IMG/VR virus record: IMGVR_UViG_2529292726_000015
Span: 1-39,429 of that record
DNA: 39,429 bases
Strand: one strand, 5' to 3'
DNA from: a virus
Lineage: Duplodnaviria; Heunggongvirae; Uroviricota; Caudoviricetes
The notes beneath the pieces were generated by a model. It was not told the origin of the DNA. It did not search any database and worked only from the letters and a program-made list of their open reading frames with translations. Below are positions 3,319-38,599 of this stretch, one piece after another. The translations under genes and the position numbers were made by a program. Each line of letters begins with the position of its first letter. Position 1 is the stretch's first letter.

Positions 3319-3582
3319 TTAACCCGCAGTGCTTTCAACTGATGAGGGGAACAAAATCTTTTCATCAAACCCTGCATTCATATCATGGACAGCAACACAC
3401 CAATCCATCGACGAACGATTATCAAGAGCCTCCATGATTTCATCCATGCGGCGCAGGTCATACAGGTAAATGCTTTTATCGCCAATGGTGTAAAAACCAA
3501 TTTTTTTCGGTGATGGGCAGCGATCAAGAACGTCCTGTAATTCGTTCAACCATGCCCGTTCTTTTTTTGTTAAAGTTGCCAT
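3319..3582 (-). CDS. Hypothetical protein (87 aa)
   Basis: Internal ATG at 3582 preceded by AAGGAG at proper spacing; stop of upstream gene 1 nt before. Confidence 0.5.
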   Translation of the reverse strand: MATLTKKERAWLNELQDVLDRCPSPKKIGFYTIGDKSIYLYDLRRMDEIMEALDNRSSMDWCVAVHDMNAGFDEKILFPSSVESTAG

Positions 3583-3583
3583 A

Positions 3584-4027
3584 TCACTCTCCTTTGATGC
3601 GAATGCCTGTTGCAATGCTGTTTATGATGCTGTCAGTGCATGGGGTAGAAAGCTGGGCATCTCCAGCAATTTTCATGACCTCAACATCTGCATATCGAAT
3701 ACCGAGGTGTATCAGACCGGCTATGCCTGACTTAAGCCGAGCATTTTCCATAAATAGAACTTTTGCCCGCTGTTTTTCTGCTTCAAGCTCAACGCGCAGC
3801 TTCCCTACCGTTAGCGCAATATCCTCGTTCTCCTGGTCGCGGCGTTTTATGTATTGCTGGTTTCTTTCCCGTTCATCCAACAATGCCAGCGCGATATCTG
3901 GCGAAAAGTGCTTCATAAAATCGTTAAGCGCATTAATTCGCTGATCGAAAGGCATTACAGGTGCTTCACCAGCAATTTTTGTTTTTTCAGCGATTTCACG
4001 AAGCTTTTGATAGTCAATCTTGCTCAC
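3584..4027 (-). CDS. Ead/Ea22-like early protein (tentative)
   Basis: 147-aa ORF starting [15 protein letters not shown], coiled-coil rich; resembles Ea22-family N-termini by recollection. Confidence 0.4.
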
Positions 4028-4191
4028 TGGTTGCCTCCTTTGCGCAACATCGCATTCAGATATTTGTTTTGATTCACTGATGGAAAAGAATTTCTCTTAA
4101 GCAATTCCTCTCTCGATGGCATTGGCTTTACGCGTTGGCGAATAATCATTTCTGCCGGAAGAATGCCGGGATTGTATGCAAGTCCTCTCAT
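4024..4191 (-). CDS. Small hypothetical protein (55 aa); alternative starts at 4209 or 4341
   Basis: ATG at 4191 preceded by GAGGAA; the longer ORF-track frame overlaps abc2 out of frame. Confidence 0.3.
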
Positions 4192-4201
4192 GGTAAATTC
4201 C

Positions 4202-4495
4202 TCAGTCATTACTGATAGCGCCATAGCGTGAGCGGTAATTACGCAGGCGCGGGTCAATTTCAGGGAAGTGGGTATATGTGGCTTTGCGGAATGGTCTGAT
4301 TGATGTCTGGTAAATTCGCTCTCGTTCTTCTTTCTCTGCAAGCCATATACAGTGGCGAAATTCCTTTTCCTCTTTCGTTTCCTGCGGTAGCGACATTATC
4401 CGGTCGTAGTTTTTCCTGAATTTATCCAGCACCTCCGATACGGAATTGCCGGAACAGCGGCGTGGGTCATCCGCACCATACAGAGGCGCTGGCAT
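4202..4495 (-). CDS. abc2: Anti-RecBCD protein Abc2-like
   Basis: 97 aa [31 protein letters not shown]... matches P22 Abc2 as recalled, and sits next to erf. Confidence 0.7.
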
Positions 4496-4518
4496 AATGG
4501 AATCCTTATGTTGCTAAT

Positions 4519-4902
4519 TTAGAAGGGAATTGAATCGTCGTATTCAGGATGATTTTGATGATTGCTACTTTGTTGCTGTTGGCTGTTTCCTGAAGTTGCA
4601 AATCCAATCTTTGCATTCAGTAATTCAAGAGTGATTGATTGACCATTTTGCCCCTGATAAACATCAACCCTGATGTTTTCTCCGGTAATTTCTACAATGC
4701 CACCTTCAACAAGAACACTACGGTAGTAATCCGCTTGCGCTCCCGGCTTGGCAAATACAACGGCACTGTAGTTTGTCCATTCTTTATTTTTTGTCTGGCG
4801 ATCGTAATACTGAACGCCAGCACGGATGTTGAATCCGATATTTTCCCCGGCCTGAAACTCTCTTGCGGGTTTGTTTAGCCTTACTGTAATCGAATGTGCC
4901 AT
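4519..4902 (-). CDS. ssb: Single-stranded DNA-binding protein (short phage SSB)
   Basis: Start at internal Met (MAHSITVRLNK); OB-fold-like; C-terminal acidic tip ...PEYDDSIPF as in SSB; TAATG overlap with erf stop. Confidence 0.75.
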   Translation of the reverse strand: MAHSITVRLNKPAREFQAGENIGFNIRAGVQYYDRQTKNKEWTNYSAVVFAKPGAQADYYRSVLVEGGIVEITGENIRVDVYQGQNGQSITLELLNAKIGFATSGNSQQQQSSNHQNHPEYDDSIPF

Positions 4903-5507
4903 TAAGCAGTTGCCCCTTCTAATTCGTCTCGTCTGATGTTGTAAACGTCCTGCGCTTTGTGCTGCTCCGGTGTGCCTTCGAGCATCTTCCACGCTTTGGC
5001 GAACGCCTGTTTAAGCTCTTCCACGGTGTTTTTCTGCAATGCTGCGTCAGTGAATGCTTTTAGAACCTGTTCAGGTGTAGGTGATGGTTTTGATTGCTTT
5101 GCTGCTGCGTTCTGCTGATGTTTATGTTCGTCGGTATCTGCATCTTTCGCATCATCAATGCCGAACAAACCATTGAGGCAATACTTGCGTGCATAAGAGC
5201 TTGTAGCTCCCGTAACTTGTGCAGAATCCATTCCTTTCTTGCTTTCTTCCTCTCGTGCAAGAGCGGTTGCCGTATGACTGTTTTCGCCATCGGTAATAGT
5301 TGCCGTGGCTTTCACATAATACCGATCACCAATCAACACAACTTCATCGCTGATTGATAAAAACAGGCCATTCAGTAACGGCTTAACGCCTTCAAGAATG
5401 TCTTCGCAGCTTCTGTATTTATATTTACCGAATGAGTTGTACTGATTCTTTGGCGCGTTCAGATTCTCCTGAATAGCTGCCAGTCTTGCGTAAAATTCTT
5501 TGCTCAT
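4902..5507 (-). CDS. erf: Essential recombination function protein Erf (single-strand annealing)
   Basis: MSKEFYARLAAIQENLNAPKNQYNSFGKYKYRSCEDILEGVKPLL... matches P22 Erf; the ORF-track start at 5537 is a TTG extension. Confidence 0.9.
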   Translation of the reverse strand: MSKEFYARLAAIQENLNAPKNQYNSFGKYKYRSCEDILEGVKPLLNGLFLSISDEVVLIGDRYYVKATATITDGENSHTATALAREEESKKGMDSAQVTGATSSYARKYCLNGLFGIDDAKDADTDEHKHQQNAAAKQSKPSPTPEQVLKAFTDAALQKNTVEELKQAFAKAWKMLEGTPEQHKAQDVYNIRRDELEGATA

Positions 5508-5596
5508 ATGATTGTTCTCAGAATGGACATGGCCCAAGGAAATAACGCTGATTTAATACTTCAGTCTTTGCCGCATTTAAAAATACGCGAACACCT

Positions 5597-5916: not shown

Positions 5917-6035
5917 AACGCCTCCAGTTGTTTCTTTGCTGCTCTGATTAATTGTTTAACTCGGCGTGATAATTCAGATTCGTGCGGGTAGAAAGCGGAC
6001 ATGACGCCGCTACCCGCGAGCTGAAAGTGCATCAT
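5901..6035 (-). CDS. cIII: cIII-like protease (FtsH) inhibitor (44 aa)
   Basis: Below ORF-track cutoff; MMHFQLAGSGVMSAFYPHESELSRRVKQLIRAAKKQLEALCAMK; the ESxLxRxxxxL amphipathic segment resembles lambda cIII; overlaps kil start. Confidence 0.55.
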   Translation of the reverse strand: MMHFQLAGSGVMSAFYPHESELSRRVKQLIRAAKKQLEALCAMK

Positions 6036-6110
6036 GGGTAACTCCTTATATTTGATTGCATAACGAAAACGCCTCAAGTGAAGCGTTATTGGTATGCGGT
6101 AAAGCCGCGC

Positions 6111-6479
6111 TCAGGCGGCTTTGATAGTCATATCATCTGAATCAAATATTCCTGATGTATCGATATCGGTAATTCTTATTCCTTCGCTACCATCCATTGG
6201 AGGCCATCCTTCCTGACCATTTCCATCATTCCAGTCGAACTCACACACAACACCATATGCATTTAAGTCGCTTGAAATTGCTATAAGCAGAGCATGTTGC
6301 GCCAGCATGATTAATACAGCATTTAATACAGAGCCGTGTTTATTGAGTCGGTATTCAGAGTCTGACCAGAAATTATTAATCTGGTGAAGTTTTTCCTCTG
6401 TCATTACGTCATGGTCGATTTCAATTTCTATTGATGCTTTCCAGTCGTAATCAATGATGTATTTTTTGATGTTTGACAT
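6111..6479 (-). CDS. Hypothetical PL-operon protein (122 aa)
   Basis: Intact ORF in the leftward early operon between N and cIII; no recognised family. Confidence 0.5.
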   Translation of the reverse strand: MSNIKKYIIDYDWKASIEIEIDHDVMTEEKLHQINNFWSDSEYRLNKHGSVLNAVLIMLAQHALLIAISSDLNAYGVVCEFDWNDGNGQEGWPPMDGSEGIRITDIDTSGIFDSDDMTIKAA

Positions 6480-6504
6480 CTATTCATATCCTCATAGATA
6501 AAAA

Positions 6505-6532
6505 ATCGCCCTCACACTGGAGGGCAAAGAAG
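6505..6532 (-). terminator. Rho-independent terminator (minus strand) within PL operon
   Basis: Minus-strand stem GCCCTC-CAGTGT-GAGGGC followed by GATTTTTTATC. Confidence 0.45.
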
Positions 6533-6629
6533 ATTTCCAATAATCAGAACAAGTCGGCTCCTGTTTAGTTACGAGCGACATTGCTCCGTGTATTCACTCG
6601 TTGGAATGAATACACAGTGCTTATTCGTA

Positions 6630-7100
6630 CTAATAAAACACCCAGTTTTCTGTTTCTTGGTTGTGTCCAAAGTTATATTCAATATCTGGTGTTGATGTAT
6701 CAATATCCTTCATCCCATCAACAAGAGTTGATACAACAGCCAAATCTTGTTTGATTCTCATTAAATGGTATTTCTTCCGGCGCAATAAACTCTCAATGGC
6801 AAGTTTCTTCGTTGGGAATGCAAAAGATCTTTCTGCATTTTTTGCTACTTTCTTAATTGCATATCTATTTCTCTTTTGTTTCCATTCCTGTAACCACTGA
6901 TTTGGTGCTGGTTTAAAATTAACAATCCAATGCGCAGGAACCAACCATGCATAATGCTCTGTCTGATGAAAAGCTATATATTGAAGTGCGAATATTTTGA
7001 TTCCATCTTCTTCAACTGTCGCCTGGAATCTCCAGAAAACAGGCATTCCATCATGTTCAGTTTCTGATTCAGGAAAAGGTACGCTCCATGATATTGTCAT
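6630..7100 (-). CDS. Hypothetical PL-operon protein (156 aa)
   Basis: Intact ORF immediately downstream of N; AT-rich; no recognised family. Confidence 0.5.
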   Translation of the reverse strand: MTISWSVPFPESETEHDGMPVFWRFQATVEEDGIKIFALQYIAFHQTEHYAWLVPAHWIVNFKPAPNQWLQEWKQKRNRYAIKKVAKNAERSFAFPTKKLAIESLLRRKKYHLMRIKQDLAVVSTLVDGMKDIDTSTPDIEYNFGHNQETENWVFY

Positions 7101-7108
7101 ATCTCACC

Positions 7109-7408
7109 TCAAATAAGTGGTTTGCTGCCTAATTTCATTTTCTGGCGACCAACACAAGTCACACCCATTTCACTGCGTGGCTTGCGGTAGTAAATACGAT
7201 TCTGTTTACTCTCGACTTCTTCTGTCTTCTTGCAGCGAAGGTTTCCGAGTGATGCTGCTTTATCTGCTCTGACGCAACCAGAGAGCTTTAGCGCAATTTT
7301 TCGCGCCAGTCGCTGCTCTTGCATTTCCTGTTCACGTTGAGCCTGTCTGCGTGCTCTGCGGCGATTTCTGGCGTTATCGTCAGCCAGATATGTAATGACT
7401 ACTGTCAT
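7109..7408 (-). CDS. N: Antitermination protein N
   Basis: Arg-rich motif DNARNRRRARRQAQ near the N-terminus; C-terminus YYRKPRSEMGVTCVGRQKMKLGSKPLI resembles lambda N (WYSKPGERGITCSGRQKIKGKSIPLI); first gene of PL operon. Confidence 0.8.
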   Translation of the reverse strand: MTVVITYLADDNARNRRRARRQAQREQEMQEQRLARKIALKLSGCVRADKAASLGNLRCKKTEEVESKQNRIYYRKPRSEMGVTCVGRQKMKLGSKPLI

Positions 7409-7719
7409 GTTGACCTCCGATGAAACAACTTTGGAATTTTTTTATTACAAAGTGGTTTCCTTCCCCGCCAATTAGACGGGGATGGAAGAGCATTTATGAG
7501 CCTTCATGGACTCTGCTCGATCAGTTCTATTTAATTAATCTCTCAATTGAATGTAAGTATTCACATAAATCCTCCTACCTCTTGTGCAGCTTTCTTGAAT
7601 ATGGTGGCGGCTGCATAACGCCTATGGAATTGACTTTGGCGGTGACGCGCCGGGTGCTTATCTTCCGGTTGCCGTCGTGCAGCTGCACTTCACGTCACCC
7701 CAAAGCCAACTACTCTTTG

Positions 7720-7762
7720 GTTCCCGCATTTCGGCGGGACAATCCCATCAATGTTAAAGAGC
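7720..7762 (-). promoter_or_regulatory. nutL (boxA + boxB hairpin)
   Basis: Minus strand reads GCTCTTTAACA (boxA-like) then GTCCCGCCGAAATGCGGGAA, near-identical to the plus-strand hairpin after cro. Confidence 0.6.
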
Positions 7763-7804
7763 CTGCCAATCTGTTCCGTTTGGCTACCAGCGTCCTGCTG
7801 ATGG

Positions 7805-7895
7805 CTTAAATTTAAGATCTCTTTAATTAATGGTCAAGAGTATTTTTGAAGAAAACTTAAATTTTCTTTCGTAACTTAAGTTTGGCTTTGATTTT
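7805..7895. promoter_or_regulatory. OL/PL operator-promoter region
   Basis: Repeated ATTTAAGA/CTTAA-type half-sites resembling P22 c2 operators, between the cI terminator and nutL. Confidence 0.5.
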
Positions 7896-7902
7896 TAAAG
7901 GA

Positions 7903-7930
7903 AATAAAAAAGGGGCGAATGCCCCCTTAT
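7903..7930 (-). terminator. Rho-independent terminator downstream of repressor gene
   Basis: Minus-strand stem AAGGGGGC-ATTC-GCCCCTT followed by a T7 run. Confidence 0.5.
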
Positions 7931-8577
7931 GGAAGGTTTGCTAGTTTTGCATCGACAACTACGCCGATGATTTTGCAGTTTCCGTTGATCTCGATCATCG
8001 GATATTGTGGGTTAAGTGGTTTTAGAAACTTCCTGCCTGCATCAATAACTAACTTCTTGAAAGTTGCCTCGTTTTCTCCTTCGAGCTTTGCAACTACCAG
8101 TTTCCCGTTACGCGGCTCTACTTCAGGATCGACGAGTATTATCATTCCTTCAGGGATACTGAGACCGGCCGGAGCCGTCATTGAGTCTCCCTTCACGTCC
8201 AACCAAAACGAATCTTCTGAACAGTCTACGGTTGTATCGTACCAGTTATCTATTGCACGCTTATGATATGGTTCTACAGCTTCCATCCAGCATCCTGCGC
8301 TCACCCAGCTAATCAGAGGGTATGACCCTCTTGGATCATGCCTACTGTGATAGGCAATGTTTGAAAGACTTTCCTCTCCTTTCATCAGATAGTCAGGGGA
8401 ACACTTCAACGCATTAGCCAGGGCGAGAAGATTCTCTCCATTTGGCTCTGTCTCAGAGCGTTCCCACTGAGATATGGCAACATTAGACACGCCGACCATC
8501 TTTCCAAGTGCGGCCTGCCTGATCTTGAGTTCTTTTCTCCGAGCGCGAATGCGCTCTCCCATCAATTGAGTTTTCAT
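7927..8577 (-). CDS. c2: Prophage repressor, P22 C2-type (HTH + LexA-like cleavage domain)
   Basis: 216 aa; MKTQLMGERIRARRKELKIRQAALGKMVGVSNVAISQWERSETEPNGENLLAL... near-identical to P22 C2 as recalled. Confidence 0.92.
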   Translation of the reverse strand: MKTQLMGERIRARRKELKIRQAALGKMVGVSNVAISQWERSETEPNGENLLALANALKCSPDYLMKGEESLSNIAYHSRHDPRGSYPLISWVSAGCWMEAVEPYHKRAIDNWYDTTVDCSEDSFWLDVKGDSMTAPAGLSIPEGMIILVDPEVEPRNGKLVVAKLEGENEATFKKLVIDAGRKFLKPLNPQYPMIEINGNCKIIGVVVDAKLANLP

Positions 8578-19044: not shown

Positions 19045-19533
19045 ATGGCAGCACCAAAGGGCAACCGATTCTGGGAGGCCCGCAGTAGTCATGGGCGAAA
19101 CCCTAAATTCGAATCGCCTGAGGCGCTGTGGGCTGCTTGTTGTGAATACTTCGAGTGGGCTGATGATAACCCGCTATGGGAGGGTAAGGTATTTTCATAT
19201 CAGGGAGAAATAATTAAGGCTAATGTCCCTAAGATGCGAGCCATGACTATTTCAGGATTGTGTACCTTCCTTGATATCACCAGGCAAACATGGGGAACCT
19301 TCCGGTCAATGGAAGGTTTTTCTGACGTCACATCACGAGCGGAAGACATCATCTACGACCAGAAATTCTCTGGCGCAGCCGCTGACCTTCTCAACGCTAA
19401 CATCATCGCCCGTGATTTGGGCCTCAAAGAGCAGTCGCAAGTTGAAGACGTGACACCTGATAAGGGAGATCGCGATAAGCGGCGCTCTCGTATCAAGGAG
19501 CTATTCAACCGTGGAACTGGACGCGATTCTTGA
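19045..19533 (+). CDS. 3: Terminase small subunit (P22 gp3-like); ORF-track start at 19039 also possible
   Basis: [46 protein letters not shown]... matches P22 gp3. Confidence 0.85.
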
Positions 19534-21010
19534 TAACCTGAGCGACGAAGAGCAAATCGAATTGCTCGAGCTACTCGAAGAAGAAGAGAACTACCGGAAC
19601 ACACACCTGCTATATGAATTTACGCCATACAGCAAACAGCGTGAGTTCATCGACGCCGGGCATGACTATCCAGAGCGCTGTTTTATGGCTGGTAACCAGC
19701 TTGGTAAGTCATTTACTGGTGCTGCTGAAGTCGCGTTTCACCTTACAGGGCGTTATCCTGGCACAAAAGGCTATCCTGCTGATGGTAAATATGGCGGTGA
19801 GTGGAAAGGTAAGCGTTTCTATGAGCCTGTTGTCTTTTGGATTGGTGGCGAGACAAACGAGACTGTAACCAAAACGACTCAACGCATCCTGTGCGGTCGT
19901 ATCGAAGAGAATGGTGAGCCAGGCTACGGTTCCATACCGAAAGAGGACATCATTAGCTGGAAGAAGTCTCCTTTCTTTCCGAACCTTGTTGATCATCTTC
20001 TGGTTAAGCATCACACGGCTGATGGTGTTGAAGATGGCATTTCAATCTGCTACTTCAAACCATACTCGCAAGGCCGTGCTCGCTGGCAGGGTGACACAAT
20101 CCACGGCGTGTGGTTTGACGAAGAGCCACCATACAGCATTTATGGCGAAGGTCTTACCCGTACCAACAAATACGGGCAATTCTCAATTCTGACGTTTACC
20201 CCGCTGATGGGGATGTCTGACGTTGTTACCAAGTTCCTGAAGAATCCCAGTAAGTCGCAGAAAGTGGTCAACATGACCATCTATGACGCAGAGCACTACA
20301 CCGACGAGCAGAAAGAGCAAATCATCGCATCCTATCCCGAGCATGAGAGAGAGGCACGTGCTCGTGGTATTCCTACGATGGGTAGTGGTCGAATCTTCCA
20401 GATACCGGAAGAGACAATTAAGTGTCAGCCGTTCGAGTGTCCTGATCACTTCTACGTAATTGGCGGGATGGATTTCGGATGGGATCACCCACAGGCGCAG
20501 GTTCAGCTTTGGTGGGATAAGGACGCAGACACAATCTACGTTTCACGCGTGTGGAAGGCGAAAGAAAAAACAGCCGTTCAGGCGTGGGGAGCCGTTAAAT
20601 CATGGGCGCATAAAGTGCCAACAGCATGGCCTCATGACGGAAACCAGCATGAGAAGGGCGGCGGTGAGCAGCTCAAAGGGCAGTATGCAGACGCTGGATT
20701 TATGATGTTACAGGAGCATGCGACATGGCCTGATGGCGGTAATGCTGTGGAGCCTGGCATCACTGAATTGCGCGACATGATGCTCGATGGTCGCTTCAAA
20801 GTATTCAACACCTGTGAGCCATTCTTTGAGGAGTTCCGCCTCTATCACCGTGATGAAAACGGGAAAATCGTCAAGCTTAACGACGACGTTCTCTCAGCCG
20901 TTCGCTATGCATACATGATGCGCCGCTTCGCCAAAATGATGCGCGACATCAAAAAACCAAAAGAGAAAAAGATACCAGCCCCAATCAGGCCCATCGCACG
21001 GAGAACTTAA
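19511..21010 (+). CDS. 2: Terminase large subunit (P22 gp2-like)
   Basis: 499 aa, same length as P22 gp2; [46 protein letters not shown]... Confidence 0.92.
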
Positions 21011-23176
21011 ATGGCCGACGAAAACAGACTCAATTCCATTCTGTGTAAGTTTGACGCGGACTGGATGGCGAGCGATGAAGCCAGAACCGAGGCGACAAAT
21101 GACCTGTATTTTAGCCGAGTGTCGCAATGGGATGACTGGCTATCAAACTACACTACCCTGCAATATCGCGGACAATTCGATGTTGTTCGCCCGGTGGTCA
21201 GGAAACTGGTAGCAGAGATGCGCCGGAACCCTATCGACGTTCTCTTCCGACCCAAAGACGGCGCTAATCCTGATGCTGCCGATGTGTTGATGGGAATGTA
21301 TCGTACTGATATGCGCCATAACACGGCAAAGATTGCCGTTAACGTTGGCGTTCGTGAGCAGATAGAGTCCGGCGTTGGTGCATGGCGTCTGGTCACGCAG
21401 TACGAAGACAACGACCCAACAAGCAACAATCAGGTAATCCGACGCCTTCCAATCCATGAAGCCTGCTCACACGTCATATGGGACGCCAACAGCAAGCAGA
21501 TGGATAAGAGCGACGCTAAGCACTGCACGGTGATTAACGCTTTGCCACGCAATGGCTGGAAAGAGTTCGCAGAGGATTACGGTATTGATCCTGACACCCT
21601 GCCATCTTTCCAGAATCCGAACGACACATGGCTGTTTCCGTGGGTATCGAATGATGTCGTCTACGTCGCCGAGTATTACGAGGTAGAAGAGAAGAAGGAG
21701 AAAGTCTTCATCTACCGCGACCCGCTGACAGGTGAGCCGGTCAGCTATTACCAGCAGGATATTAAAGACGTTATCGACGACCTGGCTAATCGTGGATTCA
21801 TTAAGGTAGCAGAGCGCAAGGTGAAGCGTCGGCGTGTGTATAAGTCGATCATCACCTGCACGCAGATACTGAAAGATCGCGAGAAGATAGCCGGAGAGCA
21901 TATCCCAATCGTTCCAGTGTATGGAGAATGGTCATTTGCTGGTGACAAGGAGTGCTACGAGGGAGTGGTAAGGCTGACGAAAGACGGTCAACGCCTTCGT
22001 AACATGATCATGTCGTTCAACGCCGATATTGTTGCTCGTTCACCGAAGAAGAAACCGACCTTCTTCCCTGAGCAAATCGAAGGCTACGAATACATGTACG
22101 GTGGAAATGATGACTATCCGTACTATCTGCAGAACAGGACCGATGAAAACGGTAACGACCTGCCGATTGGTCCAATCTCCTACATGGAAAACCCTGAAGT
22201 GCCGCAAGCCAACGCTTACATGCTTGAGGCTGCCACCAACGCAGTGAAAGAGGTAGCTAGTCTTGGCGTTGATGCGCAGGCGGCAAATGGTCAGGTCGCT
22301 TTCGATACCGTCAATCAACTGAACATGCGGGCAGACCTTGAGACATACGTGTTTCAGGATAACCTGGCTACCGCAATGCGACGTGATGGCGAGATTTATG
22401 CCTCAATGGTCAACGATATTTATGACGTTCCTCGTCATGTAACGCTGACACTTGAAGATGGTAGCGAGAAAGACGTTCAACTATACGCGCAAGTTGTAGA
22501 TTACCAGTCCGGTAATGTGGTCACACTCAACGACATTCGCGGTCGCTATGAGTGCTATACAGACGTTGGACCATCCTTCCAGAGTATGAAGGAACAGAAC
22601 CGCGCAGAGATTCAGGAGTTGCTCACCAAGGTTCCGCAAGGTACTCCAGAGTTCCAGATGCTGATGCTGCAATACTTCACGCTGCTTGACGGTAAAGGCG
22701 TCGAGATGATGCGAGAGTACGCGAACAAGCAACTGGTGATGATGGGGCTGAAGAAACCAGAAACACCTGAAGAGATGGAGATGGTACAGCAGGCTCAACA
22801 GCAGCCGCAGCAGCCATCAGCAGAGCAAATTCAGGCGCAGGGTATCCTTCTGCAAGGTCAGGCTGAATTGCTCAAGGCAGAGAACCAACAGGCGCAGATT
22901 CAGGTTGAAGCCGCCAAGGTTGAAGCCCAAAACCAACTCAACGCCGCGAAGATTGCGGAAATCTTCAACAATATGGACCTCGACAAGCAGGCAGAACTGC
23001 GTGAGTACCTCAAGCTCGTAGGTCAATTCCAGCAACAGCGCAGCAAAGATGCTCGTGCTAACGCTGAGCTGCTTCTTAAAGATGCAGACCAGACTCATTC
23101 ACAACGCATGGATTTCGCGAATCTTATGCGTCAAGTTCAAATCCCCTCCGGCGGAGTAGCCGAGACACCTCAATAA
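21011..23176 (+). CDS. 1: Portal protein (P22 gp1-like)
   Basis: 721 aa directly after terminase; P22 gp1-like sequence and position. Confidence 0.92.
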
Positions 23177-23189
23177 GAGAGAGTTAATC

Positions 23190-24101
23190 ATGTACCAAAC
23201 CACCGACATTCAGGCTTCTGAAGAATTAACCCTGCCCGACAATCATGCAGCGGCATCTGCTGATGGCTTAGTTGTCGATAATGCCAACGACAACGCAGGT
23301 CAGGAAGAAGGCTTCGAGATTGTCCTGAAAGACGATGAGAAACCGAAACAAGACCCGGCAACTAATGCTGAATTTGCCCGTCGCCGCATCGAACGCAAAC
23401 GCCAGCGTGAGCTTGAGCAGCAGATGGAAGCGGTTAAGCGTGGAGAGTTGCCGGAGCACCTGCGGGGGAACCCTGAGTTACCAAAACAACCAGACCCTAA
23501 CGATTATCTTTCCGAAGATGCACTGGCTAAGTACGACTATGACCAGAGCCGCGCACTGGCTGCCTTCCAGCAGGCAAACAGTGAATGGCAGATCAAGGCT
23601 ATGGACGCACGAAGCCAGGCTGTCGCCGAGCAGGGTCGCAAAACTCAGGAGTTCACCCAGCAATCAGCGCAATACGTCGAGGCAGCCCGTAAGCACTACG
23701 ACGCAGCGGAAAAGCTCAATATCCCTGACTATCAGGAGAAAGAGGATGCATTCATGCAACTGGTGCCGCCAGCAGTCGGTGCCGACATCATGCGCCTCTT
23801 CCCGGAGAAATCCGCCGCTCTCATGTATCACCTTGGTGCTAATCCTGAGAAAACACGCCAGTTGCTGGCGATGGACGGGCAATCCGCGCTGATTGAACTC
23901 ACCCGACTGTCAGAACGTTTACCTCTCAAGCCTCGAGCCAAACCTGTTTCAGAAGCCCCGTTACCTGATGAACCCATTCAGGGACACGCTGTTGCTGCAA
24001 ATATCTCTGCGATTGAAAAGCAGATGGAAGCGGCAGCAAACAAAGGGGATGTAGAGACATACCGCAAGCTCAAGGCGCAACTGAATAAAGGAATTCGATA
24101 A
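23190..24101 (+). CDS. 8: Scaffolding protein (P22 gp8-like)
   Basis: 303 aa, helical and charged, between portal and coat. Confidence 0.88.
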
Positions 24102-25402
24102 TGGCATTAAAAGAAGGGCAGTTAGTTACTTACGCTATCGATGAAATCATCGAAACCGTCCAGAACCTGACGCCAATGGCGTCCAAAGTGACAAAATACA
24201 CCCCTCCGGCAGAATCCATGCAGCGTTCAAGCAACACCGTGTGGATGCCTGTTGAGCAGGAAGCGCCAACTCAGACTGGCTGGGATTTAACTGGCAAGGC
24301 AAGCGGGATTCTGGAACTCTCCGTGAAATGCAACATGGGCGATCCGGATAACGATTTCTTCGAGCTTCGTGCAGATGACCTGCGTGATGAGCGTTCTTAC
24401 CGTCGCCGCATCCAGGCATCCGCCAGAAAACTGGCGAATAACATTGAGTCAGCGATTGCCAAACAGGCAACTGAAATGGGCTCGCTTGTTGTTCACGATA
24501 CCCGCGCAATTGGTCCATCATCTACTGACCTGTCTGGCTGGGATTTTGTGTCTGATGCAGAGCGCCTGATGTTCTCCCGTGAGCTAAACCGCGATATGGG
24601 CATCAGTTACTTCATGAACCCTGACGATTACCGCAAATCAGGCCGCAACCTGGTAGATGGTGACATCTTTGGTCGCGTTCCTGAAGAAGCGTATCGTAAC
24701 GGTACTATTCAGCGTCAGATTGCTGGCTTTGATGAAATTCTTCGCTCACCGAAACTTCCGGCAGTTACCAAGTCAACCGCTACTGGTGTAACTGTGACTG
24801 GAGCGCAGAAGTTTAAGCCGCAGGCATACACCCTTGATACCGATGGTAACAAAGAGAACGTCGACAACCGTGTTGCAACGGTGACCGTATCCTCCACCGC
24901 CGGATTTAATCGCGGCGACAAAATCAGCTTCACTGGTGTGAAATTCCTGTCTCAGATGGCGAAGAACGTGCTGACTGATGATGCGACTTTCTCAATCACC
25001 CGTGTGATCGATGGTACTCACATCGAAATCACGCCGAAGCCGATTGCACTGGATGACGAGTCACTGACAAAAGAAGAGAAGGCTTACGCTAATGTAAACA
25101 CCTCTCTTGCTGCGAGCACTACGGTAAACGTTCTGAATGTGGCAACAACCACCGCTAACGTGTTCTGGGCTGATGACTCAATCCGTCTGCTGTCTCAGCC
25201 GATCCCTGTAACCCATGAACTGTTTGCTGGTATGAAAACGTCTTCCTTCAGCATTCCTGGCATTGGTGTTAACGGCATCTTCGCAACGCAGGGTGATATC
25301 AACACTCTGTCTGGTAAGTGCCGTATTGCTGTGTGGTATTCAGCATGTGCTGTACGACCAGAGGCAATTGGTGTTGGTCTGCCTAACCAGACTGCGGGAT
25401 AA
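24101..25402 (+). CDS. 5: Major capsid (coat) protein (P22 gp5-like)
   Basis: 433 aa [54 protein letters not shown]... matches P22 coat. Confidence 0.92.
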
Positions 25403-32661: not shown

Positions 32662-33300
32662 TTAATTGCGAATGGAATCGCGGAACTCTTTACTTGATAG
32701 AAAAGGATCTGTTCTCCTTAACTCATCATAGTTTTTATTAAACTTTCTTGCTTCACCAGGGTATCTGTTGAACAAAACATTGCAGAAAAAAGAGAGCAAT
32801 AACTCACATATGAATGCTAATATCCTGAAAAATAAAGGTATAAAAAGAAGGAAAGGTTCATTGAAGTCTCTATTCCAAACAAAATAGACAATCATCCCGA
32901 CATACCAAATTGATATCCCTATACTGATGATTGTTCCAACAGAGGTAACTACGATCCCGATTAAGTCGGACAGTCTGTTTGCCAGTAACTCATTTGAGTA
33001 TCTTGCAATCATATACCGCCAACATTTTGCAATATCATCCTGATCTGTAGAGTCTTCTGGAATGGCTAGGCTTCTACATATTGAAGCAGCTCTTTTTTTC
33101 TCAACTCTTTTTGAGAGCCATCCATTAAAGAGATACATCAACACCTGCGTTGCTATTCCTGCACCAAGTGATATCAAAGACATCCCCAAAAATCGCCACC
33201 CTGGAGATAGTGACTGGTACTGCCAAACAAAAAAAATTAAAAAACCTAATGATCCTATGACATAGGCTGATGTATCGCTATATATATCTATTTTTTTCAT
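32662..33300 (-). CDS. Polytopic inner-membrane protein; superinfection-exclusion (SieA-like) candidate by position
   Basis: 212 aa with several hydrophobic segments; strongly AT-rich; opposite strand to virion genes; sits where P22 carries sieA. Confidence 0.5.
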   Translation of the reverse strand: MKKIDIYSDTSAYVIGSLGFLIFFVWQYQSLSPGWRFLGMSLISLGAGIATQVLMYLFNGWLSKRVEKKRAASICRSLAIPEDSTDQDDIAKCWRYMIARYSNELLANRLSDLIGIVVTSVGTIISIGISIWYVGMIVYFVWNRDFNEPFLLFIPLFFRILAFICELLLSFFCNVLFNRYPGEARKFNKNYDELRRTDPFLSSKEFRDSIRN

Positions 33301-33678
33301 TGAGTAGCCACTCCTTAGTTTTGAGCAGGATACCAGATGATACTGTATTGGTGGAGTGGTGTGTGAAAACGTGTCAACGACAAACCATCCACAACTTGGA
33401 CGAATGATTTAGCAAAAAGTGCTATTTTTGGTGTTTAGTGTCATAGAAAAGTGAATAGCTCACTTTTCAACATTGCATGAAACTTGCAGGAAATGTGACA
33501 TTACCTTATAGGTAACTTCGGCGAAAATGCAGTAAATGTGAAACGTAATGGTTTAAACATGTCGCTAAAGTGGTTGTAAGTTAGCCTCCGAAGGATTGCT
33601 GATAGCTTTGTTATAGTATTAAATGACATTTGACATAGTTGGATACTTAGCTGTGGCTATCAAGATGGAGGTGTGTTC

Positions 33679-34122
33679 ATGCTTACTTGTTTTGATGTCG
33701 CCGACTACTTCCTGTCGCGGTGTGACGAGGATAGCGGTGACACAATCTCTAATTTAAAATTACAAAAGCTTGTTTACTATGCTCAGGGTTTTTCATTGGC
33801 GTTGCTTGGCGAGCCTCTTTTTCAGAATAAGATGGAAGCTTGGATGCATGGCCCTGTTGTCCCTGAGCTTTATCGCCGTTATAAACAATATGGTAATGGC
33901 GCTATCCCTTCTCCAGAGTCTTTTGATGCTGAAAAATTCAGCGAAGAACAGTTAGAGCTATTAGAAGAAGTCTGGGATGTTTTTGGGCAATTTTCTGCCT
34001 GGAAACTGAGGAACATGACACACGAAGAGTCACCATGGAGATCAAACTATATTGAGGGTGTTGGTGGTTCTGAAATTAGCTCTAAGGAGATGGCAGAGTA
34101 CTTTGCAACTCGGATTAACTAA
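33679..34122 (+). CDS. Panacea (DUF4065)-domain protein, putative antitoxin-type component
   Basis: LKLQKLVYYAQGFSLALLGEPLF...EAWMHGPVVPELYRRYKQYG matches the Panacea/DUF4065 signature as recalled; ATG at 33679 preceded by GGAGGTG. Confidence 0.65.
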   Translation: MLTCFDVADYFLSRCDEDSGDTISNLKLQKLVYYAQGFSLALLGEPLFQNKMEAWMHGPVVPELYRRYKQYGNGAIPSPESFDAEKFSEEQLELLEEVWDVFGQFSAWKLRNMTHEESPWRSNYIEGVGGSEISSKEMAEYFATRIN

Positions 34123-34126
34123 CGAG

Positions 34127-34546
34127 ATGGCAAGAAAATCTAAAAGGATTATCCCCCCTGCTGAATCTACAGGTAAGTTAAAGTTAGGGCCGCAGTCAGG
34201 GGGGAATTCAGATCAAAAGAAACCGAAATTTTCATTCTGTTACATCCAAAGCTCTCACTGCATAACGAAATGCCAAAAAGATGAGAAAGCTGGCTTAGCT
34301 GATAAATTATACAGATTAAGTCAACTAACATGGGCAGAGATTAAGCAGCAAGGTAGGCATAAGCTTGGATTTGAGAAGATTGCAAGGGGTGCGATTAAAG
34401 CAGGTATCCCCAGTCATATAACGGAAGACGTAGATCATTTCTTGGCTTTTAGATTTGATGATTTGAAAGCCATGGTTGGTTATCGTCTTGGATCGACATT
34501 TTTTGTTATATGGCTTGATAGAGAGTTCAACCTATACAAGCACTAA
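34127..34546 (+). CDS. Unrecognised 139-aa protein immediately downstream of the Panacea gene (candidate toxin/effector partner)
   Basis: ATG 5 nt after the Panacea stop; basic N-terminus (MARKSKRIIPP...); no family recognised. Confidence 0.45.
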   Translation: MARKSKRIIPPAESTGKLKLGPQSGGNSDQKKPKFSFCYIQSSHCITKCQKDEKAGLADKLYRLSQLTWAEIKQQGRHKLGFEKIARGAIKAGIPSHITEDVDHFLAFRFDDLKAMVGYRLGSTFFVIWLDREFNLYKH

Positions 34547-34547
34547 T

Positions 34548-34575
34548 AAAACCCACCGTCAGGTGGGTTTTTTAT
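34548..34575. terminator. Bidirectional rho-independent terminator between convergent genes
   Basis: Stem AAACCCACC-GTCAG-GTGGGTTT flanked by A-run on the left and T-run on the right. Confidence 0.6.
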
Positions 34576-34598
34576 AAGGAGTAATCATGATTTACCCA

Positions 34599-35135
34599 TC
34601 AAACAACCCACCAGTTTGCCTGATTGGATGCCAGCCTTGCAGTTTTTATGGAATTAATTATGCCATGCTCAAGAGCCTTGTTAGCATCCAAAATGGTCGA
34701 GTCTGCTATCAGGGATGCCCACCTAATATGGGTTCCGATGTCGATATTGAACGTCTCAACGAAGCGATCAAGATCGTTATCGAGGCATTTCCCGTACTCT
34801 CTCAATCTGGCATGGTCGGCGGCTGGGGTGGCAAAGCCCCATAATAGAGGATGTAACAGGAATCTTGATAATGGGTTTGCGAAACGTTCTGAGCCAGCCA
34901 GGAAAACGATATTAGCTATGGACTCAACATTGCTTATGTTGTGAGTTCTAACGGTAACAGGGAGTGACTTAAGAAAGTTATACGCAGTAAAACCAGCGGC
35001 AGTTTCCCCTCCCTGACTTGATATATGGATATTTAATTCAGTTGCGCCTTGAGATAATGCGGTGAGACAGTGGTTCTGAAGTTGCCCAACAGTGGCGGTG
35101 TTAACGGGGCATAAGAAATGAATTGTGTGCAGCAT
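34599..35135 (-). CDS. ClpP-like (S14/ClpP-crotonase fold) serine protease homolog
   Basis: IHISSQGGETAAGFTAYNFL...ISNVESIANIVFLAGSERFANPLSRFLLHPL aligns by eye with E. coli ClpP (YINSPGG...CMGQAASMGAFLL...MIHQP), including candidate Ser and His; ATGA overlap with mnt stop. Confidence 0.6.
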   Translation of the reverse strand: MLHTIHFLCPVNTATVGQLQNHCLTALSQGATELNIHISSQGGETAAGFTAYNFLKSLPVTVRTHNISNVESIANIVFLAGSERFANPLSRFLLHPLLWGFATPAADHARLREYGKCLDNDLDRFVETFNIDIGTHIRWASLIADSTILDANKALEHGIINSIKTARLASNQANWWVV

Positions 35136-35383
35136 TATTTATCATCCTTACCATACATGGTTTTCAGCGTCTCCAGCAGCGCCTCTTTGAATTTGTCAGC
35201 TTCTTGCTGAGCAAATGACTCAACTGACTTTGGCGACCTATCTTCATCAATCGCGGCTTGCAAAATCATGACGATCTCGGAGTTAACAGAGCGACCATTT
35301 TTTGATGCTCTAACAGCAAGAGCCTCGCGCAAAGATTCAGGGATTCTTACCGTAGTTGGAGAAATTGACACACCCTTTGCCAT
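35135..35383 (-). CDS. mnt: Mnt-like ribbon-helix-helix repressor
   Basis: 82 aa; N-terminal RHH region with NGRSVNSEI resembling P22 Mnt/Arc (ANGRSMNSEL); divergent from arc-ant. Confidence 0.75.
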   Translation of the reverse strand: MAKGVSISPTTVRIPESLREALAVRASKNGRSVNSEIVMILQAAIDEDRSPKSVESFAQQEADKFKEALLETLKTMYGKDDK

Positions 35384-35497
35384 ATCACACCTTTGGTATT
35401 CAATTTGATATCAAAGTGTATGCAAAAAAATTTTGACTAGATATACTCACTTTGCTATCTTTTGTATTCGAAAAGAGTTGTTTGCGTGGAGGGTAAC
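35384..35497. promoter_or_regulatory. Divergent Pmnt/Pant promoter-operator region
   Basis: TTGACT element and partial palindrome TAGATA...TATCT between divergent mnt and arc. Confidence 0.4.
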
Positions 35498-35650
35498 ATG
35501 GAGAAAGAAATAAGTAAGATTTTGGTAAGGATGCCGCAGTCGTTAAAGGATGCTATCGGTAGCAGGGCAAAGGAAGAGTGCAGGTCGTTTAACTCAGAGG
35601 TTATCAAGCGCCTGATAGACAGCCTGAAGAGAGAGGGGGTAACGGTGTGA
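35498..35650 (+). CDS. arc: Arc-like ribbon-helix-helix repressor
   Basis: MEKEISKILVRMPQSLKDAIGSRAKEECRSFNSEVIKRLIDSLKREG resembles P22 Arc; GGAGGG RBS before ATG. Confidence 0.7.
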   Translation: MEKEISKILVRMPQSLKDAIGSRAKEECRSFNSEVIKRLIDSLKREGVTV

Positions 35651-35882
35651 TTCGCTTGGATGCAGTAGTCAAAGAGATTGCGATTACCATTTTAAGACCA
35701 AATTTTGTTCATGGCGAATCATTTGGCACGAACGAAAAATTGAGAAGAGAAAGAGTATTCAGTGGCAAGCGCACGTTTTCAGAAGTGATGCTTGATGCGG
35801 CAAAGAAATCAAAACAGTGAAGCCCCAACTGCTGGAACAGTCAGGGCTTCGGTTGTCGGTAAATCCGTGGAGAAAAACCAAC

Positions 35883-36785
35883 ATGAATAGTATAGCAATT
35901 TTAGAAGCAGTGAACACCTCTTACGTGCCATTCAACGGTCAGCAAATTATCACCGCCATGGCTGCCGGAGTTGCATATGTTGCGATGAAGCCAATCGTTG
36001 AAAACCTCGGAATGAGCTGGTCAACGCAGCAAACAAAACTCATGAAGCAGATTAGCAAATTCAACTGTGTTCATATGAACATGGTTGCCGCTGATGGTAA
36101 GCTTCGTAAGCTACTCTGCCTTCCTTTGAAGAAGTTAAATGGATGGCTGTTCAGCATCAACCCTGAGAAAGTTCGTGCTGACATCCGCGATAAACTGATT
36201 CAGTACCAGGAAGAATGCTTTACTGTGCTGCATGACTACTGGACAAAGGGAGAGGCAGCAAATGCACGGAAGAAAACATCTGTTGATGACAGGACTCCGC
36301 TTCGTGATGCTGTAAATATGCTAGTCAGCAAAAAGCATCTAATGTACCCAGAAGCTTATGCAATGATTCATCAGCGTTTCAATGTGGAAAGTATTGAAGA
36401 GCTTGATGCATCTCAGATACCACAAGCAGTAGAGTACATCCACAGGGTAGTGCTTGAAGGTGAGTTCATCGGCAAACAAGAGAAGAAAACCAACGAGCTT
36501 TCTGCAAAAGAAGCAAACAGCCTTGTATGGCTATGGGATTATGCCAACCGCTCACAGGCATTATTCCGCGAACTGTATCCGGCGCTGAAACAAATTCAAT
36601 CGAACTATTCCGGCAGATGCTACGACTACGGTCATGAGTTCTCGTATGTTATCGGAATGGCGAGAGACGTTTTAATCAATCACACACGAGATGTTGATAT
36701 TAATGAGCCAGACGGACCAACGAATCTTTCCGCATGGATGAGACTTAAGAATAAAGAATTACCTCCTTCAGTACATAACTACTGA
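35883..36785 (+). CDS. ant: Antirepressor Ant
   Basis: [46 protein letters not shown]... matches P22 Ant; the ORF-track start at 35817 is an extension. Confidence 0.85.
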
Positions 36786-36802
36786 CAGATAACCAACGCG
36801 AC

Positions 36803-36828
36803 AACCCAGCTTCGGCTGGGTTTTTTTA
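36803..36828 (+). terminator. Rho-independent terminator after ant
   Basis: Stem ACCCAGC-TTCG-GCTGGGT followed by a T7 run. Confidence 0.7.
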
Positions 36829-36886
36829 TGCCCAAAATTCACCGTAGCCACGCTGCGGCGATTCCTTGTATCTGGAGCAAATTAAA

Positions 36887-38599
36887 ATGACAGATTCAAT
36901 AAATGCCAATGTTGTAGTGAGTATGCCTTCGCAACTCTTCACTATGGCACGTTCTTTTAAAGCCGTAGCCAATGGTAAAATTTATATCGGAAAAATTGAC
37001 ACTGATCCGGTAAATCCTGAAAACCAGATTCAGGTTTATGTGGAGAACGAAGACGGTTCTCACGTTCCTGTTTCGCAACCAATCATCATTAACGCTGCTG
37101 GTTATCCGGTATATAACGGACAGATTGCCAAGTTCGTAACTGTGCAAGGCCATTCTATGGCTGTTTATGATGCGTATGGTGCACAGCAGTTCTATTTTCC
37201 TAATGTGCTGAAGTATGACCCTGATCAGTTACGCCGAGAGCTTGCAGGAGATAATGGTTCAAATCTGGTTGGTGGTCTTCCGTTTGATTCTATGTATGGA
37301 GATCTCTCTACTACTGAAGATAACACAATGTCTATAAATGAACGTCTAAATTGGAGTAGAAAAACAGGTAAGACAGTAGAGCTTCCAGCAGGAAGGTTTA
37401 AAGTAAGCGGAGAGCTTGAACTTGGCGGTGTTAAGTTGAGAGGTAGATCTATAGGTTTTCGTAATAGTGACGGTACGGTACTTGTAGGTGTTGGGCAAGA
37501 TAGACTATTTAATCAATCTGAAAGTACATTTCCTTATTTCGCTTCCACAAAACTTGAAAGTTTACGCATTGAAAATGTTATATGCGGAATAGAATTTGGT
37601 TATCTGAATAGAGCTGAGTTTGAAGATATACATATAAAATGTACTGGTACAGGAGTGAGATTTGGGCGCGCTGGAAATGCGGGACCACAATGGAATATTA
37701 TGCGCAGATGTACAGTGGAAAGTATTGGTGGAAGCGCGATATACATGAATGGAGCAGAGTGGTGTAATAACAACACTTTTGAGCTTTGTTTCTTTGAAAG
37801 CAAGGAAAACGCAGATATACCAGCAGTGGTTATCGATTGTGCTGGAGGGTTTGGGGCAATTGATAACATTTTTATTGGGACAGAAATAGCATCTGAAGGA
37901 TATGGTGTTAGGCTGAAAAACGCTAAGGCAACTCATTTTTTTGGTGCATACTTAGAATGCTATGGGCCATCAATTTGGTTAAATGGCACATCTCTTGGAA
38001 CAAAAGTTGCCGGTGGGGTATTTGCAAGACAACGAAATAACAATGCCACTGGCATTAATTGGGCAATATATCATGAGTCTGGTAATGCATCTATTGAGAT
38101 TGATAAACCTTATGTTGTTGTGTCAAGCCCAATAAGTCAGAATGGGTGTGGCTTTATTGGATATAAAGGAGAAAGTCCGGCGTCTGGCTTGGTGGTGGAT
38201 ATAACATCAGACCCTCACACTGAAAATATCGGGGGTGTTGCATATACAAGATACAAGGATGGATTATTTAGTAAAACAACTAAAATTGTTCATGGAGATC
38301 AAATAATTCAATCAAATTCATCTCCATCACTTTCTCTTCAGCACGAAGATGGCACAAAAAAGGTTGAAATATATAGCAACTCATTAAAAGATGGGGAAGA
38401 TTTTGGTGCCACGCTTAAGGTGAATGATATATCAAGAATGCAATTCACAGCCGATGGTAAGAAAATATTACTTCCTGGACAAACTCTTGGTGTTAAAGCT
38501 GAGGAAAATACTGATACATCAGGCATTAAAACCCATAGGGTTCAACTACTTAATGAGTCAGGGGCGCATCTTGGATATATTCACGTATTCTCAAAATGA
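36887..38599 (+). CDS. 9: Tailspike protein: P22 gp9-like head-binding N-domain fused to a divergent receptor-binding/enzymatic C-domain
   Basis: N-terminal ~115 aa ([44 protein letters not shown]...VLKYDPDQ) match P22 gp9; remainder does not resemble P22; ORF-track start at 36866 is TTG. Confidence 0.85.

Follow-up and report, generated by a model that had tools for sequence, protein, structure and literature searches.

The closest described relative of the gene considered here is PpClpP1 of Pseudomonas plecoglossicida (PDB 9UXT; PLoS Pathog 2026, PMC12900304), the CHARACTERISED homologue, which is an N-terminally truncated paralogue of the ClpP peptidase with its active site arranged as Ser73-His96-Pro151. 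PpClpP1 assembles into a homotetradecamer with an axial pore of 42.7 Å, and its peptidase activity is about 13-fold weaker than that of the canonical paralogue; this activity requires both Ser and His, and the Pro151Ala and Pro151Asp variants retain ~60% of it. It does not bind ClpX, and together with canonical ClpP it forms a heterotetradecamer that ClpX engages and in which substrate is degraded faster. The paper contains no mention of prophage (PMC12900304). Here we describe a gene of this type in a prophage of P22-like (Lederbergvirus) type. The window, by which we mean the whole stretch of 39,429 nucleotides (nt) that was analysed (IMG/VR virus record IMGVR_UViG_2529292726_000015, positions 1 to 39,429), is 99.4% identical to Escherichia phage phiv205-1 over the region 33300-36900, and there, behind a gene for a repressor of the Mnt type, lies a gene for a ClpP-like protein of 178 amino acids (aa). 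We are confident that this gene encodes a short ClpP of the PpClpP1 type and that it is autonomous phage cargo, not a head protease. The protein family is already known, with one member characterised in 2026; what is new is the phage-cargo setting, and a literature search on ClpP-like morons or defence genes carried by phages or prophages returned nothing relevant beyond the PpClpP1 paper.

A preliminary description of the locus had aligned the 178-aa product by eye with the ClpP catalytic core, and this similarity is borne out by profile and structure comparison. The protein scores 46.7 bits against Pfam CLP_protease (PF00574; cut-off 20.2, E 4.3e-12) over residues 24-165, and of the two peptidase families then suggested for it the first, S14, is upheld by this significant match to the ClpP fold; for the second, S49 (SppA / lambda C), Pfam reported no family at E<=0.1. 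The nearest solved structure is 9UXT, matched with E 4e-35 over residues 3-175, the next match lying at 3e-8, and the similarity to PpClpP1 extends over the full length of both proteins (178 and 183 aa; 39% identity). Structure prediction also yields a ClpP fold: a Foldseek search with an AF2 model (predicted local distance difference test score, pLDDT, 85.7; predicted template modelling score, pTM, 0.84) gave a template modelling (TM) score of 0.91 to 9UXT and ~0.77 to Escherichia coli ClpP. When 1.84 billion representative proteins were searched with a profile, 60 clusters (50% identity) were found at E<=1e-30 and 2054 at E<=1e-10, the top clusters being nearly all of 180-195 aa and aligned from residues 1-10. 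The gene is under strong purifying selection, with a ratio of nonsynonymous to synonymous substitution rates (dN/dS) of 0.08 when compared with the Pectobacterium copy.

Catalytic residues were assigned from an alignment with E. coli ClpP of strain MG1655 and followed through 20 family members, among them sequences from Pseudomonas, Massilia and metagenome-assembled genomes labelled actinobacterial and thaumarchaeal. Ser72 (codon 34922..34920) aligns with Ser97 of E. coli ClpP and His95 (codon 34853..34851) with His122, and both are invariant across the 20 members at identities down to 32%; the candidate Ser and His of the preliminary description are therefore real and stand at the canonical positions, as do Ser73 and His96 in PpClpP1. 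The third triad residue is another matter. Canonical Asp171 is replaced by Ser146 (codon 34700..34698) in a column that varies between S, A, T, P, R and E over the same members, so that proper alignment preserves Ser and His and loses the acidic residue. The third position of PpClpP1 is also non-acidic (Pro151 for Ser146 here), and because its P151A and P151D variants keep ~60% activity (PMC12900304), the missing Asp may well be tolerable. The full set of residues invariant in the 20 members is G42, G43, G48, Y52, F54, N66, S72, G81, R84, F92, H95, P96, W99, E113 and D121, and the oxyanion-loop glycines (GG) and the handle helix of ClpP are present.

The ClpP-like protein begins opposite 'LLKERVIFL' of E. 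coli ClpP and so lacks about 25 N-terminal residues of the mature enzyme; with this start the axial gating loops are absent, as they are in PpClpP1. The hydrophobic pocket in which the IGF/IGL loops of ClpX and ClpA dock, which we take to consist in E. coli ClpP of Y60, Y62, F82, I90, M92, F112, L114 and L189, has N35, H37, S57, H65, I67, F85, N87 and K164 at the corresponding positions here, hydrophobic residues being kept only at the M92 (I67) and F112 (F85) positions and the others being polar. Features for ClpX docking are likewise absent from PpClpP1. At the C terminus the protein carries an NWWVV tail, of which NWWV is conserved in the phage and enterobacterial clade, whereas the Pseudomonas proteins have QWSVHA. 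Compared with housekeeping ClpP (E. coli ClpP, MEROPS S14, TIGR00493), then, the protein has kept the fold, the oxyanion loop (GG), both Ser and His, and the handle helix, but identity is just 22-26%, Ser stands in place of Asp171, polar side chains occupy five to six of the eight positions in the ClpX/ClpA pocket and the N terminus is short. The protein also falls far under the equivalog cut-offs: housekeeping ClpP models of NCBIfam, TIGR00493 and NF001368 included, gave 22, 33.9 and 41.1 bits against cut-offs of 308.6, 249 and 251 (the curated cut-offs of such models span 228-361 bits, the scores of this protein 22-41).

In GenBank the phiv205-1 copy (MN340231) is annotated as a head maturation protease, and the best PHROG match of the protein is indeed phrog_94 'head maturation protease', at 76.8 bits. 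With such prohead proteases (NF045542, PHROG 94) it has in common that it is phage-encoded and has a ClpP fold without axial loops. Its score on the ClpP-related head-maturation model Clp_rel_HeadMat (NF045542), however, is 49.7 bits, far below the cut-off of 120, and housekeeping ClpP of E. coli itself reaches 158 bits on phrog_94; that profile is thus broad and not specific, and the GenBank label is best explained as an artefact of its breadth. ClpP-fold phage genes in general are at risk of automatic head-protease annotation by way of phrog_94, as happened in MN340231. The location of the gene also argues against a role in the head: the unbroken block of terminase, portal, scaffold and coat genes on the plus strand (19511-25402) includes no protease gene and is followed by the genes for ejection proteins, and the ClpP-like gene lies about 9 kb from this head module on the opposite strand, oriented against late transcription, so that its placement outside the head module in the preliminary description was correct. 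P22-type capsids mature without proteolysis, and a phage of this type requires no prohead protease. Most P22-like phages lack the gene, which is mobile among unrelated phage types and has chromosomal relatives in Pseudomonas and Massilia. A function in head maturation is poorly supported and, to our minds, hardly credible.

As first described, the 178-aa open reading frame (ORF) lies directly downstream of mnt on the same strand. The ATGA start/stop overlap claimed for the two genes proved wrong: the junction reads TAATG, in which the mnt stop codon TAA (35137..35135) and the ClpP-like start codon ATG (35135..35133) have one A in common. An AAGGA Shine-Dalgarno sequence is found 9 nt 5' of this ATG within the final mnt codons (those for MYGKDDK and the stop), and between the two genes there is zero intergenic space, no hairpin and no room for a separate promoter. 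Co-transcription with mnt, as had been proposed, together with translational coupling, is well supported by this gene anatomy. Mnt is the maintenance repressor of ant. Since the ClpP-like gene has no space for a promoter of its own and appears translationally coupled to mnt, it should be expressed wherever Mnt is made, namely in the lysogen, an expectation that draws on the gene arrangement and the role of Mnt. In another E. coli P22-like prophage, Gally of strain LF82, mnt is transcribed in lysogens and goes up 40-fold in macrophages (PMC9928086); we found no Clp-annotated gene near mnt of the Gally prophage. Beyond the 3' end of the ClpP-like gene is a GC-rich hairpin that folds with -18.5 kcal/mol on the minus strand and -19.7 kcal/mol on the plus strand (z -4.6) and whose Emek equivalent is annotated as a rho-independent terminator. 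The terminator scan did not pick it up and folding confirmed the hairpin, which has the look of a terminator acting in both directions. The ClpP-like gene does not stand out in a GC-content profile.

The tight arrangement with mnt could be taken to mean that the two products work together. The protease might control the antirepressor or repressor, or be the toxic arm of an abortive-infection or toxin-antitoxin module that is restrained by Mnt, a ribbon-helix-helix (RHH) protein; antirepressor control and abortive infection had both been suggested in the preliminary description. RHH proteins are commonly antitoxins, Mnt yields a FitA-like_RHH match, and tight coupling is retained behind four mnt alleles: the junction TATGGnAAGGATnAnAAATAATGCT is conserved in the window, in Pectobacterium, behind an allele that shares 85% identity with P22 mnt, and in PhiR12, and the final 81 nt of mnt accompany the ClpP-like gene even where the remaining mnt diverges. 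Moreover, the entire clpP-mnt-arc-ant cassette moves as a unit into lambda-like siphophages, in which (PhiR12_1, PhiR12_4 and PhiR12_5) clpP-mnt / arc-ant is found between tail genes L and K; in PhiR12_1 it occupies 3525-5537 and comprises the ClpP-like gene, mnt, a small ORF at the arc position and ant. With this cassette an immI module has entered another type of phage, but the PhiR12 copies are 98.9% identical, which indicates recent transfer and does not amount to independent evidence for a pair.

The distribution of the gene argues against such a partnership. Mnt is encoded upstream in 44 of 80 IMG/VR loci, all of them in the clade at >=80% identity, and is missing there from the other 36, which include two at 75% identity and every one of the 33 that fall below 70%; the mnt-protease pairing, whose recurrence it had been suggested to survey, does recur behind at least four mnt alleles in P22-like phages and is absent from all loci below 70%. 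Relatives of 52-75% identity have no nearby RHH gene in many prophages. The slot behind mnt is itself variable, being filled by unrelated small ORFs in other P22-like phages (ORF59 in P22, orf77 and orf69 in Emek). The Mnt of the window shares 36% identity with P22 Mnt across residues 11-79 (E 8e-14), is by this sequence match a true, full-length Mnt homologue, and is encoded at the canonical site together with arc, sar and ant. Functional coupling to Mnt is therefore poorly supported, whether as antirepressor control or as a two-gene abortive-infection pair, and we judge it very unlikely.

Stand-alone copies (52-75% identity) are encoded on the opposite strand to the flanking phage genes at four or more (>=4) other prophage positions, among them the interval between lysis cassette and terminase in lambdoid prophages of Klebsiella and Leclercia, the space between N and erf/ssb in Proteus, and the tail or baseplate modules of myophages in Chromobacterium, Pantoea and Rahnella. 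The gene appears to be autonomous because of these stand-alone copies, because 36 of the 80 loci lack Mnt and because other ORFs occupy the mnt slot elsewhere. We conclude from these comparisons that it is an autonomous moron which, in P22-like phages, has settled in a slot where it would gain lysogenic expression from the mnt transcript. It is present in 128 of 5426 complete E. coli genomes (~2.4%), including extraintestinal pathogenic (ExPEC) and avian pathogenic (APEC) strains such as S88, with an Arc-family gene adjacent in every one among the matches listed, and a close copy is found in just 6 of 50,697 phage records. The Proteus prophage with a stand-alone copy also carries, at 6421-8051, a DUF4411 and Peptidase_M78 (ImmA/IrrE-like) pair by the S24 repressor gene, near the ClpP-like gene and N; this is likely a further accessory or defence pair of the immunity region.

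Relatives at a greater distance are ordinary chromosomal genes. A conserved non-phage locus of Massilia, Telluria and related betaproteobacteria holds the gene (at ~6001-6546); judged from their translations alone, its neighbours there resemble genes for purine catabolism (the allantoinase PuuE and 5-hydroxyisourate hydrolase) and for a porin. Pseudomonas orthologues of PpClpP1 (gene at 5001-5552) are flanked by genes for KGG-repeat general-stress proteins and DUF6555, a setting that hints at a stress-linked role. PpClpP1 is a conserved chromosomal Pseudomonas gene, whereas the gene of the window is phage cargo. That PpClpP1 might be derived from a prophage was considered and rejected: its orthologues are chromosomal in Pseudomonas, Azotobacter and Stutzerimonas, with KGG and DUF6555 neighbours and no phage genes.

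By analogy with PpClpP1, the protein would form a barrel with a wide, ungated pore and a weak Ser-His peptidase, and would be unable to dock ClpX itself. Its main action would be as a heptamer stacked on a heptamer of host ClpP, giving a mixed barrel that ClpX or ClpA could engage via the host ring, and in the lysogen Clp-dependent proteolysis would change in its rate or range. Lysogeny stability, superinfection resistance or host fitness are possible benefits to the prophage, and the slot behind mnt would be the source of lysogenic expression with no functional partnership with Mnt. We hold the whole of this proposal, that mobile cargo encodes a short ClpP which alters Clp proteolysis in the lysogen, the hybrid-barrel step included, to be evenly balanced between acceptance and doubt. 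Several points weigh against it. Identity to PpClpP1 is just 39-45%; Arg170, the inter-ring sensor of ClpP, is Asp145 here, so that ring-ring contacts may differ; the WWV tail, a predicted strand at residues 173-177, has no counterpart in PpClpP1; and the docking comparison employs a presumed list of ClpP pocket residues. No phage-borne copy has a known phenotype, nor did the literature search turn up a paper on such copies.

The loss of the axial loops and of the docking pocket would also suit an open-pore peptidase that is sufficient in itself, in which homo-14-mers degrade diffusing peptides and unfolded or nascent proteins without an ATPase or host ClpP; the targets might possibly include unfolded proteins ejected by superinfecting phages, leading to exclusion or defence. 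The PpClpP1 homo-14-mer, with its 42.7 Å pore, has measurable peptidase activity of its own (PMC12900304), and the slots used by the gene are classical ones for exclusion or defence (behind mnt by the SieA-like gene; N-erf; lysis-terminase). That stand-alone activity is weak, however, and higher in mixed barrels (PMC12900304). The PADLOC 2.0 defence models (2023 library) gave no match for the ClpP-like protein or for Mnt, there is no known phenotype, and toxicity would be expected of a constitutive ungated protease, whereas the 128 complete E. coli genomes carry the gene stably. We regard a self-sufficient peptidase as unlikely.

The same losses, of the ClpX pocket and of the canonical Asp, could also be those of a decoy or dominant-negative subunit that acts as a poison on host ClpP barrels or obstructs the face on which the ATPase docks, lowering ClpXP/ClpAP activity in the lysogen and stabilising phage or antitoxin proteins. 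RexB of lambda has been reported to act in a similar way. PpClpP1 does not bind ClpX, and mixed barrels would offer a single ATPase-competent face; in the sole case tested, however, mixed barrels raised ClpX-dependent degradation (PMC12900304). The invariance of Ser72 and His95 to 32% identity and the dN/dS of 0.08 argue for catalysis that has been kept, and a decoy is quite unlikely in our estimation.

The surroundings of the gene (Table 1) resemble immI of P22 (sieA-ORF59-mnt / arc-sar-ant). The SieA-like gene, mnt, divergent arc, sar, ant and then tailspike are shared, and the immI region is complete: mnt, arc, sar and ant follow the canonical order, and downstream of them comes the tailspike gene, in which a head-binding domain was detected. 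The window differs in having the ClpP-like gene behind mnt, where P22 has ORF59, and a Panacea-type two-gene module between the ClpP-like and SieA-like genes. The SieA-like gene occupies the position of P22 sieA; the P22 SieA paper makes no mention of Clp or a protease. The first gene of the module encodes a Panacea/SocA-like product of 149 aa, which scores 87.2 bits on Pfam SocA_Panacea and 71 bits on the NCBIfam SocA antitoxin model, under the cut-off of 190; the 139-aa partner matches phrog_8366 and, weakly, PADLOC NsnC (E 6e-6). The two probably make up a toxin-antitoxin or defence pair, and orf149 and orf161 are their counterparts in phage Emek. SocA of Caulobacter is a ClpXP adaptor, which was the motive for considering a link with the ClpP-like gene. 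An obligate link was rejected: Emek has the pair without a ClpP-like gene, and the ClpP-like gene occurs without the Panacea pair in Pectobacterium, PhiR12, Klebsiella and others.

Between arc and ant there is a 57-aa ORF (35647-35820, plus strand) that overlaps the arc stop as GTGA and has its 3' end just within sar; it could be assigned to no family and is labelled hypothetical in phiv205-1, while orf73 fills the equivalent place in Emek. In the divergent control region a Pant-like -35 element, TTGACT (35433-35438), aligns with TTGACA of P22. This intergenic region is ~27 bp longer than in P22, Emek and Pectobacterium, and the added stretch contains an 18-bp near-palindrome, CAATTTGATATCAAAGTG (35401-35418), that is absent from P22 and closely precedes the start of mnt, a candidate operator for this divergent Mnt or Arc allele. 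A promoter scan gave 3 sites against 3.2 expected.

Table 1 Features of the immI region and of the ClpP-like gene in the window
Feature	Position	Strand	Basis or remarks
SieA-like gene	32662-33300	minus	predicted membrane protein, 212 aa; phrog_7745 'superinfection exclusion SieA-like', 74.5 bits
Panacea/SocA-like gene and 139-aa partner gene	33673-34546	plus	two-gene module between SieA-like and ClpP-like genes
10-bp GC-rich hairpin	34548..34571	either	between convergent ClpP-like and 139-aa genes
ClpP-like gene, 178 aa, ATG start	34599..35135	minus	ORF; Pfam PF00574; 9UXT match; fold
Translational-coupling junction	35133..35149	minus	AAGGA 35149..35145, 9-nt spacer, TAATG
mnt-like ribbon-helix-helix repressor gene, 82 aa	35135..35383	minus	Pfam Arc 41.8 bits; P22 Mnt homology
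mnt-arc divergent control region	35384..35497		alignment with P22, Emek and Pectobacterium
arc	35498..35650	plus	Pfam Arc 45 bits; labelled Arc in phiv205-1
sar antisense RNA	35816..35882	minus	Rfam RF00262, 83.9 bits against gathering score 43, E 3e-17
ant antirepressor	35883..36785	plus	Pfam P22_AR_N 152.8 bits, P22_AR_C 103.5 bits

ClpXP and ClpAP govern phage regulators, antitoxins and stress responses. The most far-reaching possibility is that the ClpP-like gene is a previously unrecognised single-gene lysogenic-conversion factor, expressed from promoters active in the lysogen and placed in several classical exclusion/defence slots, which reprograms host Clp through hybrid barrels or as an ungated peptidase and in so doing blocks superinfecting phages or tunes prophage induction; it would then stand for a new class of proteolysis modulator or anti-phage gene. 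We put this forward tentatively and think it unlikely as a whole. If the phage copy does act like PpClpP1, a subunit that fits into host ClpXP/ClpAP would be in circulation among Enterobacterales by way of their temperate phages, and a prophage would have in it a direct way to rewire the proteolysis of its host.

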